Shown piece after piece: positions 10,108 to 23,503 of a stretch of 64,000 nt of DNA (within the stretch, counting starts at the first letter, position 1; every line of letters starts with the position of its first letter). The DNA comes from Patescibacteria group bacterium. Its GTDB lineage: Bacteria > Patescibacteriota > Patescibacteriia > UBA10025 > JAHIVO01. The notes beneath the pieces were generated by a model. That model did no database searches and was not told where the DNA came from. It saw only the letters and a list, made by a program, of their open reading frames with translations. The stretch lies in assembly GCA_049325535.1 (NCBI GenBank), contig JBMOKY010000001.1, forward strand, positions 299,386-363,385, given 5' to 3'. A program made the translations under genes and the position numbers.

Positions 10108-11453
10108 CACGTACCAACTACATACCGCTCACCGTAGTCACCGCTATCGCACTGGTGGCTGTTTTGATGCTGATGATCGCGGCGGTGTATGAACAGCACG
10201 CCTCTGATCCCGAGTCTGTTTCCAGTACGGCATCCAGCACCAAAGCCGCTTCAATATCTTGCGAGGAAATCAGCAGCCAGGCTGCGTGCGACGCTAGACC
10301 TGATTGCTATGCGGTGTATGATGCATGTCCATGCTACACGGCAAACAGCGCAGCGGGGAAATGCGGAGGAGAGCTGGATCAGTGCGAAGCCTGTGAGGAT
10401 GGCCGATTTACCCGATGCGCTGCAGGAGCGTGTGATACCATTCAGGGTTATTCAAACACCAACACGTATGCCGAAAGTACGGCGGTGGATACGTCGGATT
10501 GGCTGACGTATGAGAACGAGGAGTATCAGTACTCAATTCAATATCCCGCTACCTATAAGATTATTGAAAACGCAGATTCAAGCATTTCAATAGCGCCAAT
10601 AGATGGCAGCTACCCATATCCGCATATTTCTGTGGATACTACCCCATTGGAAGAAAAAATTACTGAGATAGTAGACGAATTTATTCGTAGGGAGACAATT
10701 TATGCTGGTACAATAGAGGGCGTAGCGGTGATTGAAAATATGGCCATCGGTGGTGAGGCGATCAATTATCTCTTTGAGCACAATCAATATACTTACCTTA
10801 TTCGAGGTGGAAATACTGAAGACAATCGCGCAATGTTTAACACGTTTAGCTTTCTTAATGACACCTCCGACTGGCTGACGTATGAGAATGAGGAGTATGG
10901 GTTTAGCTTTCAGTATCCGATTGAATGGGGCGCTGTCCAAGTTTCTGAAAAAGATTATAGGAATGACGAACGAAGTTATTATGAAGGGCGGGGAGTCAGT
11001 ATTACATTTGCAAACAACACAAAACCAAACATACGATTATCATCAAGTGATTATCGTGATTTTGCTTCACTCACTTCCTATAATGGTGGGGAGGATTTAG
11101 CGAAAGTGTGCACTTCACCTGGTATCGTCAACGACTTTTCTTATTGTATAAATAAAACGGTTGCAGGCCAAAGCACTTTTGATAGACTGCGCTTTGATGC
11201 GCCTGAATGCTCACCAATGTTTATTCGAGAAAGCTGGCTCAATATCGATTTGCCGGTTTATAAAAGCATTATCATCAGTTCAATATTATTTACCGGTGGG
11301 GGATGGGATTGTACCAGCGATGATGCTGCTGAATGGGACAGAATAACCAGTTCTGAATTACAAAGACTTATCAACAGAAATGACCTCACTCAGGATGAGA
11401 TGGCATTACTTCAGGGAATGGATATGGTCATTGAGACATTTCGCTTTCTGTAG
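10104..11453 (+). CDS. membrane-anchored Cys-rich extracellular protein with two TSDWLTYENEEY-x-S-x-QYP repeats
   Basis: ATGA overlap with upstream gene; TM; Cys module; motif repeated at aa about 130 and about 255. Confidence 0.65.
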   Translation: MTRTNYIPLTVVTAIALVAVLMLMIAAVYEQHASDPESVSSTASSTKAASISCEEISSQAACDARPDCYAVYDACPCYTANSAAGKCGGELDQCEACEDGRFTRCAAGACDTIQGYSNTNTYAESTAVDTSDWLTYENEEYQYSIQYPATYKIIENADSSISIAPIDGSYPYPHISVDTTPLEEKITEIVDEFIRRETIYAGTIEGVAVIENMAIGGEAINYLFEHNQYTYLIRGGNTEDNRAMFNTFSFLNDTSDWLTYENEEYGFSFQYPIEWGAVQVSEKDYRNDERSYYEGRGVSITFANNTKPNIRLSSSDYRDFASLTSYNGGEDLAKVCTSPGIVNDFSYCINKTVAGQSTFDRLRFDAPECSPMFIRESWLNIDLPVYKSIIISSILFTGGGWDCTSDDAAEWDRITSSELQRLINRNDLTQDEMALLQGMDMVIETFRFL

Positions 11454-11476: not shown

Positions 11477-11503
11477 TTAGCACTCTTGACGTGAGAGTGC
11501 TAA
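11477..11503 (+). promoter_or_regulatory. CIRCE operator (HrcA binding site) overlapping hrcA promoter
   Basis: TTAGCACTC-N9-GAGTGCTAA perfect inverted repeat; TTGACG inside spacer and TTATAAT downstream. Confidence 0.85.
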
Positions 11504-11530
11504 TTGATTTATAATACACTTGCGTAGCAT

Positions 11531-12238
11531 ATGAAAGAACGAAAAAGAGCTATACTTAGCGCAATTATAAAGGAACATGTGCATGGAGACGGAAAACCCG
11601 TTGCTTCCCAGGCGCTTGTGGATAAGTATAAGCTGGAATTATCATCGGCCACCGTACGTAATGAAATGGCTGACCTCGAGTCAGAAGGACTGATTTTTCA
11701 GCCACATACGTCTGCCGGACGCATCCCCACGGAAAAAGGCTGGCAGTACTATATCGAGAATTTCCTGGTAGAAAAGCAGCCGGCGCAGGCGCAAATGACG
11801 CTCCTCGAAAAAGCACTGCACAAGCGGGAACAGGCACAGACAGATGTGGCGGTGAAAAACGTCGCCCGCACGCTGGCGGAAATTTCACAGAACGCCGTGT
11901 TTGTCGGTTTTTCGCGAGACAATGTGTATTATACTGGTCTGTCGAATTTATTTAACCATCCGGAGTTTGCGGACATAGATCTGGTGCGACATTTGTCGGC
12001 TATTGTGGATCATCTAGATGATGTGATCGCGGAATTATTTTCAAAAGTTACTGACACCCCGCGCATTCTCGTCGGCTCAGAAAATCCCTTTGGTAAGGAG
12101 TGTAGTACTATTTTCAGCCCGTATCAGGTGAAAGGATGCGAACCGGGATTGATCGGTGTACTGGGGCCGGTACGGATGGATTATGAAGACGCATTTGCCC
12201 TCGTCAATTACACAAAAAAATTATTCGCACATGCGTAA
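11531..12238 (+). CDS. hrcA: heat-inducible transcription repressor HrcA (short form)
   Basis: N-terminal wHTH KRAILSAIIKEHVHGDGKPVASQALV...SSATVRNEMADLESEGLI...HTSAGRIPTEKGW; 235 aa. Confidence 0.85.
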   Translation: MKERKRAILSAIIKEHVHGDGKPVASQALVDKYKLELSSATVRNEMADLESEGLIFQPHTSAGRIPTEKGWQYYIENFLVEKQPAQAQMTLLEKALHKREQAQTDVAVKNVARTLAEISQNAVFVGFSRDNVYYTGLSNLFNHPEFADIDLVRHLSAIVDHLDDVIAELFSKVTDTPRILVGSENPFGKECSTIFSPYQVKGCEPGLIGVLGPVRMDYEDAFALVNYTKKLFAHA

Positions 12239-12245
12239 CCATAGT

Positions 12246-12758
12246 ATGGAAGACAAGAAAGAACCAAAAGATAGTTTGAAGGAAAAAATTACCGATGTGG
12301 AAAAAATCGCCGCTGAATTAAAACTGGCGCAGCAAAAGATGGAAGAGTACATGAACGGTTGGAAACGGGCGAAGGCGGATTATCTCAATCTGAAACGCGA
12401 ATCGGAAAAAAAAGAACAGGAACTTGTTCAATTCGCCAATGCGGGACTAATTTTGCAACTCTTGCCCGTCTATGACAATTTTAAACTCGCCTGGAAACAT
12501 ATACCAAATGAACAGGTGAAGGTCGAGTGGGTGATCGGCATCGAGCATATCAAAAAACAATTCGGCGATATTCTGAAAAATCTGGGTATCGAAGAGATCA
12601 AAACCGTCGGTGAATCATTTAACCCTGAACTGCACGAGGCGGTGGCCAAAGAAAAGAAAGACGGTTTGAAGACGGATGTGGTATTTGAAGAAGTGAAGTC
12701 CGGGTATACATTGTTCGGAAAAGTGCTGGAACCGGCCAAGGTGAAGGTTGCCGCCTAG
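12246..12758 (+). CDS. grpE: nucleotide exchange factor GrpE
   Basis: Coiled-coil N-term then conserved GrpE core; ATG 12246 chosen (track 12156 overlaps hrcA). Confidence 0.85.
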   Translation: MEDKKEPKDSLKEKITDVEKIAAELKLAQQKMEEYMNGWKRAKADYLNLKRESEKKEQELVQFANAGLILQLLPVYDNFKLAWKHIPNEQVKVEWVIGIEHIKKQFGDILKNLGIEEIKTVGESFNPELHEAVAKEKKDGLKTDVVFEEVKSGYTLFGKVLEPAKVKVAA

Positions 12759-12881
12759 GCAATCCTGAACTCGATTCAGGATCTGAACGATTTAACAATG
12801 GAGATCCCGAAACAAGTTCGGGATGAGGAATAGAAAATTACTAATTCATTAAGCCCATTCGGGCAGCAAGGAACCAAACCT

Positions 12882-13310
12882 ATGCGACAACTCATGCGCT
12901 GGAGACCATTCTGGGATGTGTCCGAATTCGATAAATTTTTCGAGGACATGCCCATGGTCCCCTCCACGGTCCATGCATTCATCCCGGCGGTGGATGTGTA
13001 CCAGGACAAGGATAACGTCATCGTGGAAACCCCACTGGCTGGCGTGGATCCGAACAAAGTCAGCATCACCATCGAGAACGACGTGCTGAAAATCGAAGGC
13101 TCGATGGAGCACAAATCAGAAATTGATGAAAAAAATTATTACCGTAAGGAAGTGCGGGTTGGCAGTTTCTATCGTGCCGTGGCCCTGCCGACTCAGGTAA
13201 AAGGCGGTGACGCAAAAGCTGATTTTGAGAATGGGATGCTGAAAATCACCATTCCCAAAGCGGAAGAGGTAAAACCCCGCTCTATCAAAGTAAACGTAAA
13301 AAATCAGTAA
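12882..13310 (+). CDS. Hsp20/alpha-crystallin family small heat shock protein
   Basis: PAVDVYQDKDNVIVETPLAGVDPNKVSITIENDVLKIEG...GMLKITIPK. Confidence 0.9.
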   Translation: MRQLMRWRPFWDVSEFDKFFEDMPMVPSTVHAFIPAVDVYQDKDNVIVETPLAGVDPNKVSITIENDVLKIEGSMEHKSEIDEKNYYRKEVRVGSFYRAVALPTQVKGGDAKADFENGMLKITIPKAEEVKPRSIKVNVKNQ

Positions 13311-13362
13311 ATAGCACCTCAATCGTGAGGAAGACGGGCGCGGCCAACCCACATCAAACGGG

Positions 13363-13842
13363 TTGGCGCCCCGAAGCCAGAAGTATGAATTAGAAACCCC
13401 CTTTCGTTCTGCTTCTGGCTCCGGAGCGAATGCTCCGCGCGCGATCATCATCCCTATGCCTATCCAATTCGACAATTTCAACAGTAACCGGTTTTCCGGC
13501 GCCAACGGCGCGGGTAACGGCAATGACAGCCGTTCGGAGCGTATCCGCATCGACGCGCGCTGTCCCGTCTGCCAGTCGCCGTACGATTTCAACCGCATCG
13601 ACGTGATCCAGGAAGCTGACGGCGCCACGCTGATGTATATCAAATGTGGCGTCTGCCAATCGGCCGCTATGTCACTGATCGCGCTCGGGGCGCAGGGTCT
13701 CAAAGTCGCCAGCACCCTGACTGATCTGGAGCGCCATGAAGTACTGCGGTTTCAGGACAACGAACGGGTGAAGAGTGAGGATGTCTTAGCACTGCATCAG
13801 TTGCTTGAGCAGCCGATTGATAATTTTCTTAATTCATTCTAA
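13363..13842 (+). CDS. hypothetical protein with CxxC...CxxC zinc-ribbon; start uncertain
   Basis: ORF in heat-shock locus; CPVCQSPYD...CGVCQS; low-complexity G/N-rich N-term; no SD identified. Confidence 0.45.
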   Translation: MAPRSQKYELETPFRSASGSGANAPRAIIIPMPIQFDNFNSNRFSGANGAGNGNDSRSERIRIDARCPVCQSPYDFNRIDVIQEADGATLMYIKCGVCQSAAMSLIALGAQGLKVASTLTDLERHEVLRFQDNERVKSEDVLALHQLLEQPIDNFLNSF

Positions 13843-13913
13843 ACCCTCATTGTCGCCTCGACTGAAACGGAGAGGCCCTCATGACCGCAGTGACGGGCAG
13901 CCAACGGCATAAT

Positions 13914-13941
13914 GATCTCTCCACTTCGGTCGAGATGACAG
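13914..13941 (+). repeat. 28-nt palindromic repeat copy A (GATCTCTCCACTTCGGTCGAGATGACAG)
   Basis: 27/28 identical to 18168..18195; contains CTTCGG tetraloop hairpin. Confidence 0.6.
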
Positions 13942-14009
13942 ATGGGCAGTATCATCCATCTCACCAATAGTAATTAACCAACCATTAGAAAGCAATTAAC
14001 CAAACAACT

Positions 14010-15923
14010 ATGTCAAAAATACTCGGTATTGATCTCGGAACAACCAACTCCTGCATGGCTATCATCGAGGGTGGTGAGCCGAAAGTTCTCGAAAACAAAG
14101 AAGGTAATCGCACCACGCCCTCGGTGGTCGCTATCTCCAAAACCGGCGAACGCCTGGTTGGGCAAGTAGCTAAGCGCCAAGCCGTTACCAATCACCAGAA
14201 CACCGTTTTTTCCGTGAAGCGTCTGATCGGTCGCCACTGGAATGACGAAGAAGTACAGCATGATGTGAAAACCATGCCGTACTCTATTGAGCAAGCAGGG
14301 GAAGGTGTCAAAGTAAAAATGGTAGATAAACTCTACACACCGCAAGAAGTCTCAGCCATGATTCTTCAGAAATTGAAAGCTGATGCAGAGGCAAAGCTGG
14401 GTGAAAAAATCGAAGAAGCAGTGATTACCGTTCCTGCCTATTTTGACGACTCACAGCGCCAGGCCACCAAGGACGCAGGTGAAATCGCCGGCCTTAAAGT
14501 AAAACGTATTATCAATGAACCAACCGCCGCCGCACTGGCCTACGGATTTGATAAGAAAAAGAATCAGCAAGTAGCAGTCTACGACCTGGGTGGTGGTACG
14601 TTTGATATTTCCATCTTGGACATTTCCGAAGACACGGTCGAAGTGAAATCAACCAATGGTGACACCCACTTGGGTGGTGACGACTTTGACAAGCGGATCA
14701 TCGACTGGTTGGTTGAGGAATTCAACAAAGACCAAGGTATCAATCTCGGCAATGACCAAATGGCACTCCAGCGCCTGAAGGAAGCCGCAGAAAAAGCCAA
14801 GATTGAATTATCCACCACCAGTGAAACTGAAATCAATCTGCCCTTCATTACCACGGATGCTTCTGGTCCGAAACACATGAATCTCAAACTCACTCGCGCC
14901 AAACTTGAGACGCTCGTGGCTGACCTCATCGAAAAAACTATTGAACCAGTCAAGAAAGCACTGGCTGACGCTAAACTGGAAACCAAAGATATCGAAGAGG
15001 TGATCATGGTCGGTGGTATGACCCGTATGCCCAAAGTGCTGGAAACCGTAGAACAATTCTTCGGCAAAAAACCCCACATCGGTGTGAATCCTGACGAAGT
15101 GGTCGCTGTCGGCGCTGCAGTACAAGCTGGCGTGCTCCAAGGTGATGTAAAAGATGTGCTCCTGCTCGACGTGACTCCGTTGACTCTCGGTATCGAAACC
15201 CTCGGTGGCGTCTCCACTCCACTCATCGAACGCAACACCACCATCCCGACGACCAAATCGCAAGTATTCTCCACCGCAGCTGACAATCAGACTTCAGTAG
15301 AGGTCCACGTATTGCAGGGCGAACGTCCCATGGCCGGGGATAATAAAACGCTGGGACGATTTATCCTCTCTGGCATTCCGCCATCACCACGTGGCGTACC
15401 GCAGGTGGAAGTATCATTCGACATTGATGCCAACGGTATTCTCAACGTGAAGGCAAAAGACAAAGCATCTGGCAAAGAGCAATCCATCACTATTACGGCT
15501 TCATCAGGCCTATCCAAGGAAGAAGTCGAGAAAATGAAACAGGATGCCCAGGCGCATGCAGCCGAGGATACCAAGAAGAAAGAATTGATTGACCAGCGCA
15601 ATACTGCAGAAACCCTCGTCTACACCGCGGAAAAAGCACTGAAGGATGCGGGTGACAAAGTCAAAGATGATGTGAAGAAAGAAATTGAAGAAAAGATCAA
15701 AGTGGTCAAAGACGTGAAAGATAAGGATGATGTGGCAGCTATCAAGAAAGCAGTGGAAGATCTGAATCAAACGGTGCAGAAGATTGGTCAAGCGATGTAT
15801 GGTCAGCAACAGAAGGCTCCAGAAGGCGCAAAAGGCACGGAAGGCGATAAGGCTCAAGGTGCAAAAGGCTCTGCTCCAGTCGATGCAGAGTACGAGGATG
15901 TCAAAAAGGAAGACAAGAAGTAA
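14010..15923 (+). CDS. dnaK: molecular chaperone DnaK (Hsp70)
   Basis: Full-length Hsp70: [24 protein letters not shown]-like motifs. Confidence 0.97.
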
Positions 15924-15959
15924 TTAACAACCGCGCCCTCGGCTAACCACCGGGGGCGT

Positions 15960-16571
15960 TTGAGGGAAAATAATATGACATTTCAAGACGATATTAATGG
16001 AGCTATTCGAGAGATAGAGGGGCGAGGTTCGCAAGATTTATTTTTGAAAATTATTGAAGCTCGTAGTTTTTTGGCTGTTTCTTTTGAGCAGTATACTCAA
16101 AATAAAAACCAGAGCGTTCAATTATTTACCGATTCGTATTACACTTATCATTATTTTGCTTATGTAAATTTCTTTTATTCCTTGAAGGAAAGAACTGCTC
16201 AATTCATTAATAAATATTTGCGACTAGGCAATCCAATAGATGACGTAAGTTATCATAGAATTAGTCATAATGAGGAGGCACAAAAGGTTTTTAAAAAAAT
16301 ATTTGATTTCTTTGCTGATCCAGAATTTAAGTCAATTTCATCTGCAAGAAAAACGATGGTTCATCGTAGTCAAGATTATATTTCAGCAATACAGATAAAG
16401 GATTCAGCTAGCGCTCCTCAGCAAACTCCTCAGGTAAAGTTAGATAAAGATATTCTAGATAAGCCGAATGAAAAACTTAGTATTATTTTGATAAAAATAG
16501 TTGAATGTATTATTGATGAATTAAAGGAAGCTCAAAGTGAAAAGGGTGCAATTGATAAAGGTTCAGCCTGA
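15960..16571 (+). CDS. AT-rich orphan gene, possible HEPN-like (R-x4-H) protein
   Basis: GC visibly far below flanks; 203 aa helical; SARKTMVHRSQ contains R-x4-H; own hairpin terminator downstream. Confidence 0.55.
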   Translation: MRENNMTFQDDINGAIREIEGRGSQDLFLKIIEARSFLAVSFEQYTQNKNQSVQLFTDSYYTYHYFAYVNFFYSLKERTAQFINKYLRLGNPIDDVSYHRISHNEEAQKVFKKIFDFFADPEFKSISSARKTMVHRSQDYISAIQIKDSASAPQQTPQVKLDKDILDKPNEKLSIILIKIVECIIDELKEAQSEKGAIDKGSA

Positions 16572-16628
16572 ATTATGCAGAGATGAACAATTTTACGTCC
16601 TAATTCATCATAAGGGTGCGGTAGTGGG

Positions 16629-16695
16629 GGCCCGCCTCGGCTCGCGCCCGCTTCGACGAATCGAGGCGAGTCGACGCGAGGCGGGTTTTTGGTAC
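16629..16695 (+). terminator. extended GC hairpin followed by GGGTTTTTGG
   Basis: cccgcctcg...cgaggcggg 9-bp outer stem plus inner pairing, then T-run. Confidence 0.5.
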
Positions 16696-16702
16696 GAAAA
16701 AT

Positions 16703-16798
16703 GCTTGTCATCGCGAGCTCCGTCTGCGGAGCGTGGCGATCTCCGTGACTATCCAACCGAGATTGCCGCGTCGCCTACGGCTCCTCGCAATGACAAGC
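16703..16798 (+). repeat. long hairpin element: inverted GCTTGTCATCGCGAG / CTCGCAATGACAAGC arms around about 66-nt loop
   Basis: 14/15 complementary arms; arms share GATGACAAG core with repeats at 13914, 18033, 18076, 18168. Confidence 0.5.
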
Positions 16799-16817
16799 GC
16801 TGTGGTATACTAATCGC

Positions 16818-17582
16818 ATGGAAGTGTATCAGGACATAATTAAATACATTAAAACTGCAGGTCAGAGGCTGAAAGAGCGCTCGGGGCATATTGAGGATAT
16901 TGGCATTCGAAAAAGGAATTTGACGGAAGAGGACATTCGGATTGAGCGGGAACTGAAAGAAATCATTACCAAAAATGATCCAACACATCAGGTGTACGCG
17001 GAAGAGGAGAACGCCGATTTTTTTGATGCCGAGGAAGTGTGGGTGATTGACCCGATCAGTGGCACGCATTTGTTTATCCAGGGCAAACCACATTACGCTA
17101 TCGTGGTGTCGCATCTCCATAAGGGCATTGTGCAGTTTGCCGCGGTGTACGATACATCTGCTGATGAATTATTTACTGCACAGCGAGGCAGTGGGGCATT
17201 CTTAAATGGCACGAAAATAATGGTTCAGCCTGCAAGCCCTGATAGACTGCGCGTGGTATTTAATAAATCAAATAAGTGGCCAGATGAAGTATTGGTGCAG
17301 AAAGTTTTGGATGGTTTACAGACGTACGAAGTGTTTCGTTTAGAAGCCTCGCATGCGTTGGGGGATTGCTACATAGCTTGTGGGCGATATAACGGTGTTA
17401 TCGTTTTGGCAAAAGATAGTTTTCCATCGTTTGCTGGAAGTCTCATGGTTCAGGAAGCTGGTGGAGAATACACCAATCAAAAAGGTGAGTCAGATATTAA
17501 ACCAGATAATCGGATATTTGTGGGTGGAGATCACGGCACACATTTTCGACTATTGGGGATGGTGCAAGAGATGCTGAAATAA
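16818..17582 (+). CDS. inositol monophosphatase family protein
   Basis: EEENADFFDAEEVWVIDPISGT (WxIDPIDGT motif). Confidence 0.85.
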   Translation: MEVYQDIIKYIKTAGQRLKERSGHIEDIGIRKRNLTEEDIRIERELKEIITKNDPTHQVYAEEENADFFDAEEVWVIDPISGTHLFIQGKPHYAIVVSHLHKGIVQFAAVYDTSADELFTAQRGSGAFLNGTKIMVQPASPDRLRVVFNKSNKWPDEVLVQKVLDGLQTYEVFRLEASHALGDCYIACGRYNGVIVLAKDSFPSFAGSLMVQEAGGEYTNQKGESDIKPDNRIFVGGDHGTHFRLLGMVQEMLK

Positions 17583-17617
17583 ATTCAGCATGAGGGCAAT
17601 TGTGATATACTGCCAAC

Positions 17618-17953
17618 ATGTCCCACACCATTAAACTAAAAAAGGACAAGTACAAAAGCGCACGGGGAGGGTACTCGCGGTTGCTAGATATTTCCTGCCA
17701 GAAATGCCAGAAGCCGGTTTTGGTGTACCAGAAGGACGGGCCGGGGAATTTGCGGCGGTTGTATCTGGATCGAATTATGAGTCCGGAGAAGCTGGTTGGG
17801 TTACAACAGCAGAGCATCGCCAGCCTCGCGCCGCTGAAGTGCGCGGGGTGCGGATTTGTGATGGGCATTCCGTATGTCTACGAAAAAGAAAAGCGAAAGG
17901 CCTTCCGCATTTTTCAGGACGCGGTGATAAAGAGGATTAGGAAGGTGGGGTAA
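17618..17953 (+). CDS. small basic C4 zinc-ribbon protein
   Basis: CQKCQ...CAGCG; 111 aa. Confidence 0.5.
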   Translation: MSHTIKLKKDKYKSARGGYSRLLDISCQKCQKPVLVYQKDGPGNLRRLYLDRIMSPEKLVGLQQQSIASLAPLKCAGCGFVMGIPYVYEKEKRKAFRIFQDAVIKRIRKVG

Positions 17954-18167
17954 GGGGTACATACATCTGTCATGCTGAATGTAATGAAGCATCCCCTGAC
18001 CGAAGGTCAGGAAATCCTTCGCGTCCGCTCAGGATGACAAGTGCGGAGAGGTGCTGGGGATCAAAGAATAAAAAACGTTTGTCACTTCGAGCCCATTCGA
18101 CTCCGCTCAGGGCAGGCTTCGTCGAGAAGTCTTTACGACGTCGGTTGCATGTAATAGGGGTCATAAG

Positions 18168-18195
18168 GATCTCTCCGCTTCGGTCGAGATGACAG
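18168..18195 (+). repeat. 28-nt palindromic repeat copy B (GATCTCTCCGCTTCGGTCGAGATGACAG)
   Basis: Near-identical to 13914..13941; sits in 350-nt repeat-dense non-coding stretch 17954-18306. Confidence 0.6.
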
Positions 18196-18306
18196 TCGGT
18201 GGTCAGCATTTCATGGCCCCTCGCCATAACAGGCATATCGTAAGACATGCCAAATCTTGCTCAAAAGGCCTATTTGGCGTACAATGGGTAGTTCCAGGAG
18301 AGGTTA

Positions 18307-18800
18307 ATGAATTGGTACTATTTGCCGCTCATATGATAAAGAAACACGCGAAACACATAAAACCAAATGAATTGCTGGAAAAGGTGATGAACGCAGGGAC
18401 GAGTTGGCATCATCATTGCCTGTCCCCACGGTGCTATGTCAATGATACCGGCCAGGAGATCGTTTTACTGGAGGCGGGGAATGACATGTTTTACTGCGGC
18501 AGTACCGCAGAATTGCGAGAACAGCTGGAGGAGCATGCCTATCAGATTTCCAAACCGAAACGTAAAAGCGCTCAACCTATCGCGCACGAAGCTTTGAACA
18601 TCGTTCGTGGGTATCACCGCCAGGGCGTCAAATGGCATTTCCATATTGCGATGCCGCGTTGTTTTCTCAGTATGCAGGATCAGTATTTGCTCATAATCGA
18701 AAATGACGATACGTCCACCAAGCATGAGTGGACATTTGCCCAGCATCCGGTGGAGCTGGTACGGGCGATTGATGACTACTATCTCGGACGGAAACGGTAG
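18307..18800 (+). CDS. hypothetical protein with duplicated W-H-x-H...PRC motif
   Basis: SD AGGAGAGG 5 nt upstream of ATG 18307; TSWHHHCLSPRCY and VKWHFHIAMPRCF. Confidence 0.55.
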
Positions 18801-19506: not shown

Positions 19507-19624
19507 TATACTATTTTTCGGAAATAAGATGAACTGCACCCTCTGAAAAAAGCATGCCGTACAAAAAAGCAAAACCCCCGCACGCGATATTGGGCGGAGC
19601 GTTTTGCTTTGCGCTATGATGGTG

Positions 19625-20593
19625 CTATTCGGTGGGAATAAGCACAGCGTCGATGACATGGATTACGCCATTTGAACCAGTGATGTCTGTTTGGGTTACA
19701 TTTGATTCATTGACGCGCACGCCGTTTGAGGCATCAATTGAGACTGTTGAACCCTCGAGGGTTTTGGCAGATTCCAATGTGACGACATCAGCGGCCATGA
19801 CTTTTCCAGAGACGACGTGGTAGGTAAGGATTTTGGTCAGGCGGGGAACATCATTTAAGAGTTCATCGATGGTGTCCTGCCCGAGCTTGGCAAATGCTGC
19901 ATCTGTCGGAGCAAAGACCGTGAAAGGTCCAGTGCCCGAGAGGGTCTCAACCAAACCGGCTGTTTGGAGCGCGGTGACCAGCGTATTGAATGTGCCTGCA
20001 TTCTGAGCAATCTCGACTATCGTTTGCGAGTCGAGTTTAGCCAATTCAGCACTGACTGATTCTGGTACGAGTACGCTATCGATCACATGGATGATACCAT
20101 TTGATGCGCGGATGTCAGTATTGGTTACCATGGCGGTGCCAACCTTGACGCCGTCTGAAGTGTCAATCGTGAGTGACTCACCCTGGACCGTTTTCGCGCT
20201 AGTAAGATTTACTACGTCAGCTGCGGATACTGATCCGGAGACCACGTGGTAGGTGAGCACATCACTGAGTAAGTCTGGATTTGCCAAAAGTGTATCCAGG
20301 GTACCCTCAGGAAGTGTGGCAAAGGCGGCATCCGTCGGAGCAAAGACCGTGAAAGGTCCAGTGCCCGAGAGGGTGTCGACTAAACCAGCTTCTTGTACGG
20401 CAGTCACCAAAGTTGTGAATGTACCGGTCGATTGAGCGGTTTCAACGATTGTTTTGAGGGAACTATTTGAATTGTTTGTGGTTGCTGCGGTATTCGTATT
20501 TGCCGCATCGTCGGATGAGGTCAGGAGAAATACCGCGATGGCGCCAACCAACAGCACCAGTACTGCAATCATGAGAGTTGAATTTCTTTTCAT
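19625..20593 (-). CDS. secreted protein with two fasciclin (FAS1) domains
   Basis: Signal/TM then two copies of ...[10 protein letters not shown]...TYHVVSG...[11 protein letters not shown]. Confidence 0.85.
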
Positions 20594-20748
20594 AGTGAGA
20601 ATATTTTAGTGAATGAGATATTTTCGACCTTGCAATGGTTATAGTAGGGGATATTTTGAAAAGGTGCAAAACGTGCATTTTAATCAGAATTTAAACTTCC
20701 AAACAAAGTTGATTTAGATGTGGATTGCATAAGATTGAGATTATTGTA

Positions 20749-20791
20749 ATTAAAAAAATCCCCGCAGCGGAGCAATGAAAGTGCTGCGGGG
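20749..20791 (-). terminator. rho-independent terminator of small membrane-protein gene
   Basis: tccccgcagc-N-gctgcgggga stem, minus strand followed by TTTTTTT. Confidence 0.6.
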
Positions 20792-22702: not shown

Positions 22703-23503
22703 CTATCGGACGAGCTGGGTAGCCGTGTCGTGCAGCAGGCCATTCGTGGCGATGATGCGTTTGACCGAGCGATCGCTCGGGTCGAGCTGGTTTCCCGCCA
22801 GATCGGTGACGCGTCCGCCCGCTTCCTCCAGGATGAGAGAGGCCGCTGCCACGTCGATGAACCGTGTGTCGCAGGTCATCAGGTCGAAATGCCCCCGTGC
22901 CACATGGACCATGTCCAGTGCCGTAGAGGAGATATAGCGCATCTTCAGGGCATGTCGGGCGAATTCCTGAAAAGTGGCCATGCCCCGATGCATCAGCTCG
23001 GGCTGGTCGGCACGTGACCACCAGGAGGCGCTCACTGCCGCTTGCTCCAGCTGTGTGGTTTTCGAAACGGCAAGCGGGAGCTGGTGTGCCGCATCTGAAT
23101 TGAGGTAGGCGCCATGTCCCCGTGCGGCTGTTATCATCTCCCGGGTGATCGGATTCATGATGACGCCGACCGTGGTTTCACCAGCGATGACCAGCGCCAC
23201 CGAGATGCAGAACCAGGGGATGGAAAGCGTGAAATTGGTGGTGCCGTCGATGGGGTCGATGAACCATTGTTCCGCGCCATCACCGATGGTGTCGGTTTCC
23301 TCCTCCCCGAAAATTCCGTGGCTGGGGAAGCGCCGGCGGATGATATCCACGATCCGCCGCTCTGCCTGACGGTCCGATTGGGTGACGAAGTCACCCGCCA
23401 CACTTTTGGTCTCGACCAGCATCTGTCGACCAAATGCCGGCCTGACGATGTCCGCGGCGCCGAGCACCGCTTCTACCGCACAATCAAGGTACTCTTTGAA
23501 CAT
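22703..23503 (-). CDS. inositol monophosphatase family protein (second paralog)
   Basis: FGEEETD...EQWFIDPIDGTTNF; start MFKEYLD at 23503. Confidence 0.85.
   Translation of the reverse strand: MFKEYLDCAVEAVLGAADIVRPAFGRQMLVETKSVAGDFVTQSDRQAERRIVDIIRRRFPSHGIFGEEETDTIGDGAEQWFIDPIDGTTNFTLSIPWFCISVALVIAGETTVGVIMNPITREMITAARGHGAYLNSDAAHQLPLAVSKTTQLEQAAVSASWWSRADQPELMHRGMATFQEFARHALKMRYISSTALDMVHVARGHFDLMTCDTRFIDVAAASLILEEAGGRVTDLAGNQLDPSDRSVKRIIATNGLLHDTATQLVR

Follow-up and report, generated by a model that had tools for sequence, protein, structure and literature searches.

What is a markedly AT-rich open reading frame (ORF) doing directly behind dnaK in a Patescibacteria genome, and what might its product do? 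A reading of the letters alone (the sequence-only reading) had proposed that a horizontally acquired gene with a nuclease-type motif was inserted right after dnaK, as a candidate abortive-infection or toxin module. We analysed the window, that is, the whole 64,000-nucleotide stretch of DNA around this gene. A foreign gene does sit at the proposed place; what had been overlooked is that it is one allele of a hypervariable slot, whose contents differ between close relatives. We give a probability of roughly 0.55 to the following reading as a whole: the gene would encode a stand-alone HEPN RNase of the toxin or Abi type, would travel as exchangeable hotspot cargo and would be expressed by read-through. 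The coordinates of the features involved are collected in Table 1.

Table 1. Features of the dnaK locus and of the variable slot behind it, with positions counted from the first letter of the window.
Feature	Position	Strand	Evidence or remarks
Perfect CIRCE operator, TTAGCACTC-N9-GAGTGCTAA	11477-11503	+	0 mismatches; matches in 0/100 shuffles
Near-consensus promoter TTGACG-18-TATAAT before hrcA	11486-11515	+	11/12 positions; overlaps CIRCE
hrcA	11531-12238	+	Pfam
grpE	12231-12758	+	Pfam
hsp20	12882-13310	+	Pfam
Conserved 128-aa Cys-rich ORF	13456-13842	+	
dnaK	14010-15923	+	Pfam
dnaK hairpin, 10-bp GC-rich stem, 7-nt loop	15933-15959	+	-20.1 kcal/mol, z = -2.2
SD-like site GAGGG	15962-15966	+	8 nt upstream of HEPN ATG 15975
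HEPN gene, 198 aa, very probable Cthe_2314-like family, AT-rich foreign cargo	15975-16571	+	profile match, GC, homologue
R125-K-T-M-V-H130 codons, Rx4H motif, predicted RNase active site	16347-16364	+	invariant in P0002; alanine scan
HEPN intrinsic terminator	16631-16690	+	14-nt GC-rich arms 16631-16644/16672-16685, nested inner hairpin, then T5
96-nt palindromic (REP/MITE-like) element	16703-16798	.	15-nt terminal inverted repeats GCTTGTCATCGCGAG / CTCGCAATGACAAGC
Second cargo unit, promoter and IMPase paralogue	16801-17582	+	extended -10 promoter TGTGGTATACT 16801-16811
Slot right boundary	17573-17611	+	small palindrome GCTGAAATAAATTCAGCATGA carrying IMPase stop codon, then orf111 promoter TGTGATATACT 17601-17611
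orf111, conserved hypothetical, right-flank marker of the slot	17618-17953	+	95-96% identical in L083, L086, L088; 78% in L002

The uninterrupted ORF covers positions 15960-16571 of the forward strand (612 nt). Its first codon, TTG 15960, still belongs to the tail of the dnaK hairpin; ATG 15975 is the likely start and yields a protein of 198 amino acids. This translation is identical to NCBI protein MFZ6035817.1, which already bears the name 'Cthe_2314 family HEPN domain-containing protein'. The sharp fall in GC content that the sequence-only reading had seen over the ORF is borne out by measurement. The ORF has 31.8% GC vs 51.3% for the whole window, no other 597-nt segment of the 64 kb is as poor in GC (z = -4.6), and GC3 is 21.6% as compared with 51.6% in dnaK. 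A GC3 deviation this extreme argues for recent acquisition. The product was described as helical and free of transmembrane segments; structure prediction agrees on an all-helical protein, albeit at low confidence, and no transmembrane segment was found (the 19-aa Kyte-Doolittle maximum is 1.28).

Is the gene part of the core genome of its lineage? Scanning GTDB species genomes with DnaK gave 80 Patescibacteria-type loci with 65-89% DnaK identity, and a homologue of the HEPN protein is present in none of them. A DUF3467 gene, dnaJ or both follow dnaK on the same strand in 69 of the 80, with a median gap, counted from where the DnaK core ends, of 558 nt; in the window the DUF3467 and dnaJ genes are found 8-11 kb further downstream. 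Much closer relatives, the sister strains L083, L086/L087 and L088, were found by an exact-sequence look-up of orf111. Among L083, L086 and L088 the DnaK identity is 99.8-100%, and with the window DnaK it is 94-95%; in these strains too the HEPN gene is replaced by other genes, so that conservation as a core gene, a point raised by the sequence-only reading, is not what we see.

The comparison with these strains delimits the slot. The heat-shock block (11531-15923) is its conserved left flank, with 92-96% nucleotide identity to L083, L086 and L088 up to about window position 15970; the flanks taken together are 92-99% nucleotide-identical between the window and these strains. Homology runs through dnaK and the hairpin as far as window positions 15970-15977, and resumes at 17577-17645, before the orf111 promoter. 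In every strain the left junction falls at one and the same point, immediately behind the GTTTG of the hairpin, and the right junction varies between strains by up to 70 nt (window 17577, 17601 and 17645). What lies between is about 0.9-1.7 kb in size and holds 1-3 genes.

The contents of the slot differ from strain to strain. In the window it hosts the HEPN gene (198 aa) with its terminator, a palindrome and a 254-aa paralogue of the inositol-monophosphatase (IMPase) family, at 32% and 44% GC. L083 carries genes for proteins of 201, 153 and 172 aa (34.5-39% GC), L086 for 258 and 167 aa (37%), and L088 for a 337-aa Mrr_cat protein (26.8 bits, cut-off 21) and a 157-aa protein (37% and 45%, respectively). 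Further away, L002 (DnaK 89% identity) has a 304-aa ORF without recognised function (37.6% GC in a locus of 49%), and L003 (DnaK 82% identity) has a 414-aa Schlafen/AlbA_2 protein (33.6% in a locus of 50.5%). Six of the seven sister-strain genes fall within 34.5-39% GC, the 157-aa gene of L088 being the other; across the slot the cargo has 32-39% GC, apart from two second units at 44-45% (the window IMPase gene and that same L088 gene), as compared with 49-51% in the flanks. A blastp comparison among the cargo proteins found no two that are related. There are four cargo sets among strains with at least 94% DnaK identity, and two more in L002 and L003. Structurally the slot is a core-flanked variable hotspot. 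It has accepted six or more AT-rich cargo alleles that are unrelated to one another, the HEPN gene among them. The gene is almost certainly horizontally acquired, strain-variable cargo.

The cargo domains that can be recognised are of nuclease or conflict type, namely HEPN in the window, Mrr_cat in L088 and Schlafen/AlbA_2 in L003; in addition, the first cargo gene of L083 has a weak, sub-threshold match to the RnlA DBD domain. No PADLOC system was recognised in the slot cargo, and several cargo genes are of metabolic type or have no recognisable function. The slot cannot be called a defence locus with any certainty, since most of the alleles are without recognisable function and one of them includes an IMPase paralogue. 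It looks like an ordinary small hotspot for defence or accessory genes.

How might the cargo be exchanged? There is no integrase, transposase or tRNA at the slot, which makes homologous recombination within the conserved flanks the probable route. A fixed left junction and a variable right one, together with the lack of mobile-element genes, are also easier to reconcile with flank recombination than with a site-specific element. An exchange of this type is plausible here, given reports of competence and of retained recombination genes in Patescibacteria (PMC12455944). We also considered an integron cassette or some other site-specific mobile element, and rejected it: integrase and tRNA are absent, the right junction is imprecise, and copies of the small palindrome at 17573 occur elsewhere as a dispersed repeat.

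The position of the slot bears on how its first gene could be transcribed. The perfect CIRCE operator and the promoter overlapping it, both placed before hrcA, are likely the ultimate source of transcription for the whole forward-strand block. The dnaK hairpin begins 10 nt past the dnaK stop codon and is followed by a run of only three Ts (15959-15961, in the tail TTTG); a terminator scan did not call it. It is conserved in all the sister strains, where it marks the left edge of the slot, and judging from its sequence it is probably a leaky terminator or an RNA-stabilising hairpin. The HEPN ATG lies 15 nt from this U-poor hairpin, and the first cargo genes of L083, L086, L088 and the contig L082 (described below) start 10-25 nt past it, behind purine-rich SD-like sequences.

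The genome makes use of an extended -10 motif, TGTGNTATACT, which occurs 24 times vs 9.4 expected, a count that no shuffle reaches. An exact copy is located at 16801 and a copy with one mismatch at 17601, before orf111. On the forward strand between 11935 and 16801 there is neither an extended -10 motif nor a sigma-70-like site. The sequence-only reading had passed over the fact that the HEPN gene has no promoter of its own. A promoter-like match on the opposite strand (15997-15970) was discarded, as it is within chance expectation for the region. Because the hairpin is U-poor and the gene lacks a promoter, its transcription would probably be low-level read-through from the CIRCE/HrcA-controlled heat-shock operon; we would give even odds that such read-through takes place.

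Where did the gene come from? An exhaustive search of 1.84 billion cluster representatives returned a single homologue, P0002 (203 aa, 42% identity, E = 3e-33), and none beyond it was found by word-index searches (also with a profile, at E <= 10), by metagenome and viral scans or by tblastn against plasmids and phages. P0002 is encoded on a 1.3-kb contig, L082, of 35% GC, which has the same layout as the window: the DnaK C-terminus, a hairpin without a T-run, an SD and the P0002 gene. With 30.6% GC this gene is close to its L082 neighbours (36-39%), and so is nearly native there. The DnaK tail of L082 is closest to the clade of the window, L002, L003 and L004. From this affinity, the HEPN gene appears to circulate in the post-dnaK slot among related lineages, and the window strain probably got it from a low-GC relative.

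What, then, might the protein do? Its sole above-threshold match in Pfam is PF18730, the Cthe_2314-like HEPN family (32.2 bits, E = 1.3e-7), for which the curated gathering cut-off is 27.1 bits. The sequence-only reading had asked whether a confident homology to something other than HEPN would turn up, and the only confident match is to this HEPN family. No model in PADLOC or PHROGs matches either the window protein or P0002, no NCBIfam model matches the window protein, and neither the single protein nor a profile found a match among PDB sequences. The sequence-only reading rested its case on the R-x4-H in SARKTMVHRSQ, with the caution that the motif alone is weak. The caution was justified, because 15% of shuffles of this protein contain an R-x4-H.

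Given this weakness, we changed single residues in silico and rescored the altered proteins against PF18730. From the wild-type 32.2 bits, R125A lowers the score to 24.5 bits (a loss of 7.7) and H130A to 23.6 bits (8.6), as compared with losses of about 1 bit for the neighbouring changes K126A (31.1 bits) and R131A (31.2 bits). Elsewhere in the protein E72A gives 29.0 bits (a loss of 3.2), H59A 30.5, H94A 33.1 and E100A 34.2, and the control residues of the scan contribute 2 bits or less each. The two most conserved profile columns are therefore those of R125 and H130, which on this evidence are the Rx4H of the Cthe_2314-like family, a family that the 2013 HEPN survey lists as retaining Rx4-6H (PMC3710099). 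The motif is shared with P0002, as part of R-K-x-x-V-H-R, one of five blocks that are invariant in both proteins; the others are YYxYHYF, SLKE, AQFINKYL and VSYH. The residue after the motif arginine is K in both, where N, D or H is typical of HEPN. E72 is invariant in both too and is a candidate for the upstream acidic residue; it lies outside any Ex3[KR] motif, none of which is present. Taken together, the window protein very probably belongs to the Cthe_2314-like HEPN family.

We propose that the protein is a divergent, single-domain member of this family that retains the catalytic pair R125 and H130. The 2013 survey argues that HEPN domains bearing Rx4-6H are metal-independent RNases (PMC3710099). 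Since HEPN proteins with Rx4H are metal-independent endoribonucleases and usually dimers, the window protein would most likely be a homodimeric RNase, which could act as a stand-alone toxin or as an effector of the abortive-infection type. RNase or toxin function, judged from sequence features, stands for us in the balance. The gene itself is cargo of the slot, which extends from the dnaK hairpin up to the orf111 promoter, and its own strong terminator would isolate the genes downstream. Our literature search found no biochemical or phenotypic report on any member of the Cthe_2314 family.

The terminator of GC-rich hairpin and T-run that the sequence-only reading had assigned to the gene is present. 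Its region folds at -57.4 kcal/mol (z = -3.3), and a simple terminator scan missed it because of the long loop. The same reading described the DNA further on as repeat-dense and non-coding, which holds only in part. The 246-nt spacer (16572-16817) does consist of this hairpin and one 96-nt palindromic element, but neither is multicopy, as the window contains no further copy of either. The palindromic element gives rise to two spurious ORFs, 16537-16839 on the forward strand (100 aa) and 16532-16756 on the reverse strand. Both were considered as partner or antitoxin genes and rejected, as they span the terminator and the palindrome and are unannotated by NCBI, and the protein collection lacks one of the two. 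The HEPN gene has dnaK as its upstream neighbour and the IMPase-family gene as its downstream neighbour.

Could the protein instead be the toxin of a toxin-antitoxin (TA) or addiction module with an unrecognised antitoxin, such as a small RNA, a distant gene or a domain of its own? Such a module would be selfish and not anti-phage. The HEPN survey describes HEPN domains as common TA toxins (PMC3710099), and a foreign, AT-rich, strain-specific gene would suit the part. Furthermore, in L082 a small membrane-protein gene begins 10 nt past the P0002 stop codon and could be a partner; however, neither the window nor any fetched locus contains a counterpart. The search for a cognate partner came back empty: beside the HEPN gene there is no MNT, antitoxin or immunity gene and no other credible ORF of at least 20 aa in the window, nor is one found in the NCBI annotation. 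A search with Rfam at E <= 1 over 13300-18400 found no RNA, and the table of the survey gives the operon partners of the Cthe_2314 family as 'none detected' (PMC3710099). We consider this explanation unlikely.

Another explanation is that the adjacency to dnaK is functional, and that the protein is a non-toxic HEPN protein of RNA processing or regulation which works with the heat-shock/DnaK system. Both known members of the subfamily directly follow dnaK and share the arrangement of hairpin, SD and ATG, although their genomes differ widely in GC (35% and 51%), and the HEPN gene appears to share the CIRCE-controlled transcript. L058, a Patescibacterium further removed, likewise has a HEPN-domain gene next behind dnaK, but the domain is of a different family, PF05168, and the protein has no Rx4-6H motif. 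The evidence from close relatives points the other way. Sister strains with near-identical DnaK do without the HEPN gene and carry unrelated cargo in its place, the genes usually found downstream of dnaK are the DUF3467 gene and/or dnaJ, and the GC3 deviation speaks for a recent arrival. A role tied to DnaK is, on balance, quite improbable.

Is the gene perhaps just a passenger, a recent arrival that is unexpressed or decaying, with a motif that is intact only by inheritance? It is seen in only one sample or MAG, it has no promoter and a single homologue among all those representatives, and the contents of the slot turn over fast. Against this, the 198 codons are open in DNA of 32% GC, which at the composition of the gene has a chance of about 3e-8, and the gene has a well-placed SD as well as a dedicated strong terminator. 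P0002 and the window protein, at 42% identity, have both kept the invariant blocks, catalytic pair included, and this implies that the subfamily has been under purifying selection. We find it improbable that a gene of this kind is functionless.

Structure prediction adds little here, as models from a two-sequence alignment have a mean pLDDT of 61.7 with the window protein first and 53.9 with P0002 first, too low for a judgement of the fold. It is highly improbable that the protein is no HEPN protein at all, i.e. that a low-complexity, helical, AT-biased sequence makes a borderline Pfam match owing to an R-x4-H that arose by chance: the score exceeds the cut-off by a mere 5 bits, about half of it comes from the two motif residues, the motif is frequent in shuffles and Foldseek searches with the low-confidence models gave no significant HEPN match, yet after the loss of both motif residues (R125A + H130A) the domain still scores 18.4 bits (a loss of 13.8; E = 0.0024) over residues 46-122, where the alignment ends, a second HEPN family, HEPN_LA2681, matches the same region below threshold in both proteins, P0002 independently matches PF18730 at 35.0 bits, 8 above the cut-off, and no non-HEPN family competes in Pfam, NCBIfam or PDB sequence searches.

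The preferred reading, that of a stand-alone HEPN effector carried as slot cargo, invites comparison with systems that are already known. Like other members of the Cthe_2314-like family, the window protein scores above the cut-off with its Rx4H on conserved columns, and it is a stand-alone, single-domain bacterial protein without an operon partner. Unlike them, it is so divergent that sequence searches find no member except P0002, and it stands out by its Patescibacteria host, its extra N-terminal (~45 aa) and C-terminal helices and its fixed position after dnaK. The closest functional analogy may be the lactococcal proteins AbiD, AbiF, AbiJ, AbiU2 and AbiV, which are also small stand-alone HEPN proteins on horizontally acquired DNA and whose presumed role is that of RNases in phage infection (PMC3710099). 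The window protein matches no Abi model in Pfam or PADLOC.

Two TA systems can be compared as well. In the type II/VII system HepT-MntA (HEPN-MNT) the HepT toxin is a HEPN RNase with Rx4H, and the HepT chains 7bxo and 6m6u are among the weak Foldseek matches of our models; the window, however, has no adjoining MNT nucleotidyltransferase gene, and there is no significant match in sequence or structure. RnlA and LsoA (RNase LS) are HEPN endoribonuclease toxins with an anti-phage role, and the tie to this locus is the weak, sub-threshold RnlA DBD match in L083. The window protein itself matches neither of these families and has no RnlB-type antitoxin beside it.

As for the slot, it resembles a miniature version of the cDHS of Pseudomonas aeruginosa. 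In cDHS1/2 (PMC10250203) and in the defence-island hotspots of E. coli (PMC10121019), as here, invariant core flanks enclose lower-GC cargo that varies between close strains, and no single type of mobile element is responsible; exchange via flank homology has been proposed for them (PMC10250203, PMC10121019). The present slot differs from these in that it is tiny, lies in a Patescibacteria genome of ~1.1 Mb and abuts the terminator of a heat-shock operon. Its first gene, moreover, has no promoter of its own, and none of its cargo matches a validated defence system.

How much of this is new? The NCBI annotation of the protein existed, and both HEPN toxins and hotspots are established concepts. 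Mildly new are the small size, the precise boundary and the very fast turnover of the slot in a streamlined Patescibacteria genome, and likewise its attachment to a heat-shock operon. The gene adds a very divergent Patescibacteria branch, with two known sequences, to a HEPN family that is uncharacterised and auto-annotated. The context is more useful than the gene, as it provides a delimited slot with differing, partly nuclease-type cargo in strains whose DnaK is 99.8-100% identical. Slots with core flanks are a practical hunting ground for new defence and toxin genes in bacteria of the candidate phyla radiation, a group regarded as having few classical defence systems (PMC12455944).

If true, the coupling to heat-shock read-through would be a simple way of linking toxin expression to stress. 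One may go further and imagine the position after dnaK as a dedicated 'plug-in' site, where promoter-less first cargo genes, among them those for the HEPN RNase, the Mrr-type nuclease and unknown proteins, would be exchanged by flank recombination, expressed by heat-shock read-through only and, as interchangeable toxin or defence effectors, turned on by proteotoxic stress arising from phage infection. This would amount to a stress-coupled system of abortive-infection cassettes in bacteria considered defence-poor. We regard this idea as a long shot.

Finally, the right-hand part of the slot is organised differently from the HEPN gene. The 254-aa IMPase-family paralogue is encoded at 16818-17582 on the forward strand, and its ATG comes 6 nt after its promoter motif TGTGGTATACT. 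Its identity to the 266-aa IMPase that is native to the window (22706-23503, reverse strand) is no more than 27%, and the unit is absent from L083, L086, L088 and L002. From the layout of the promoters, the mRNAs of the IMPase paralogue and of orf111 are likely leaderless.

The gene carried in the slot behind the HEPN gene (Table) encodes an additional member of the inositol-monophosphatase (IMPase) family. It is missing from all the sister strains, and its product shares only 27% identity with the native 266-aa IMPase encoded elsewhere in the window. A terminator and a palindrome lie between it and the HEPN gene. Both this gene and orf111, the marker of the right flank, are preceded by the extended -10 motif TGTGNTATACT. 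When up to 2 mismatches are allowed, this motif has 24 matches over the window against 9.4 expected, a count that none of the shuffles reaches. As the motif stands so close to the ATG in both cases, the sequence suggests that the two mRNAs are leaderless. The motif is likewise found upstream of cargo genes and orf111 in the three sister strains (L083, L086 and L088) and in the relative L002.

A second palindrome, the small element GCTGAAATAAATTCAGCATGA, recurs in several Patescibacteria loci, one of them from a Moranbacteria genome. In the window the adjoining gene takes its final codons, stop codon included, from this palindrome, and the same is probably true in L088. Further REP-like palindromes in the window have a 29-34-nt core in common. 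Two open reading frames of 100 and 74 aa that traverse the GC-rich terminator and palindromic element are most likely spurious; the former was called as a gene by the Logan gene caller, but not by NCBI.

On L082, the contig with the only homologue of the HEPN protein, the gene that follows could encode a partner of this homologue. This gene is incomplete, as the contig end falls inside it, and neither the window nor any of the compared loci contains a counterpart.

Multi-kilobase insertions at the dnaK-dnaJ junction also occur in more distant Patescibacteria, and the gap at this junction exceeds 1.3 kb in 15 of the 69 loci. The first junction gene of L058 encodes a PF05168 HEPN domain (26.4 bits, cut-off 22) that has no Rx4-6H motif; a DUF559 endonuclease-like gene comes next. 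The first junction gene of L018 encodes a four-helix protein resembling 23S_rRNA_IVP, with a match below threshold.

Coordinates of the features described (window unless a locus is named)
Feature	Position	Remarks
Slot IMPase-family gene	16818-17582	254 aa, 44% GC; second gene carried in slot
Native IMPase gene	22706-23503 (-)	
TGTGNTATACT to start of IMPase gene	16801-16818	6 nt to ATG
TGTGNTATACT to start of orf111	17601-17618	6 nt to ATG
GCTGAAATAAATTCAGCATGA copies	17573-17593; L088 3118; L003 9446 and 4917(-); L010 11536(-)	
REP-like palindromes	13843-13965; 17955-18195	
100-aa ORF	16537-16839 (+)	
74-aa ORF	16532-16756 (-)	
Small-protein gene	L082 966-1328	N-terminal hydrophobic segment; starts 10 nt past HEPN stop codon
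Distant-junction features	L058 8254-8868; L018 8025-8591; L068 8123-11634	
Conserved ORF	13363-13842	between hsp20 and dnaK; 128-aa version 13456-13842; two CxxC pairs (CPVCQS..., CGVCQS)
Repeat stretches	10488-10546; 10859-10918	~370 nt apart
Second strain-variable segment	19552-20747	
Fasciclin-domain gene	19625-20593 (-)	within second strain-variable segment

Strain variation is not confined to the slot. Homology to the three sister strains (92-99%) is lost at ~19512-19551 and returns at ~20748-20752, and the two-domain fasciclin gene enclosed is, judged by this break, specific to the window strain.

The conserved ORF upstream of dnaK has no Pfam match. The closest relatives also have it, and several other Patescibacteria dnaK operons contain weak matches to it. 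It may be an unrecognised zinc-ribbon member of the heat-shock operon. Finally, two stretches of the window match one and the same 59-61-nt segment of L003, which is also present in L002. This indicates a direct repeat within or beside the gene upstream of hrcA, in a region that is relatively AT-rich (~40-41% GC).
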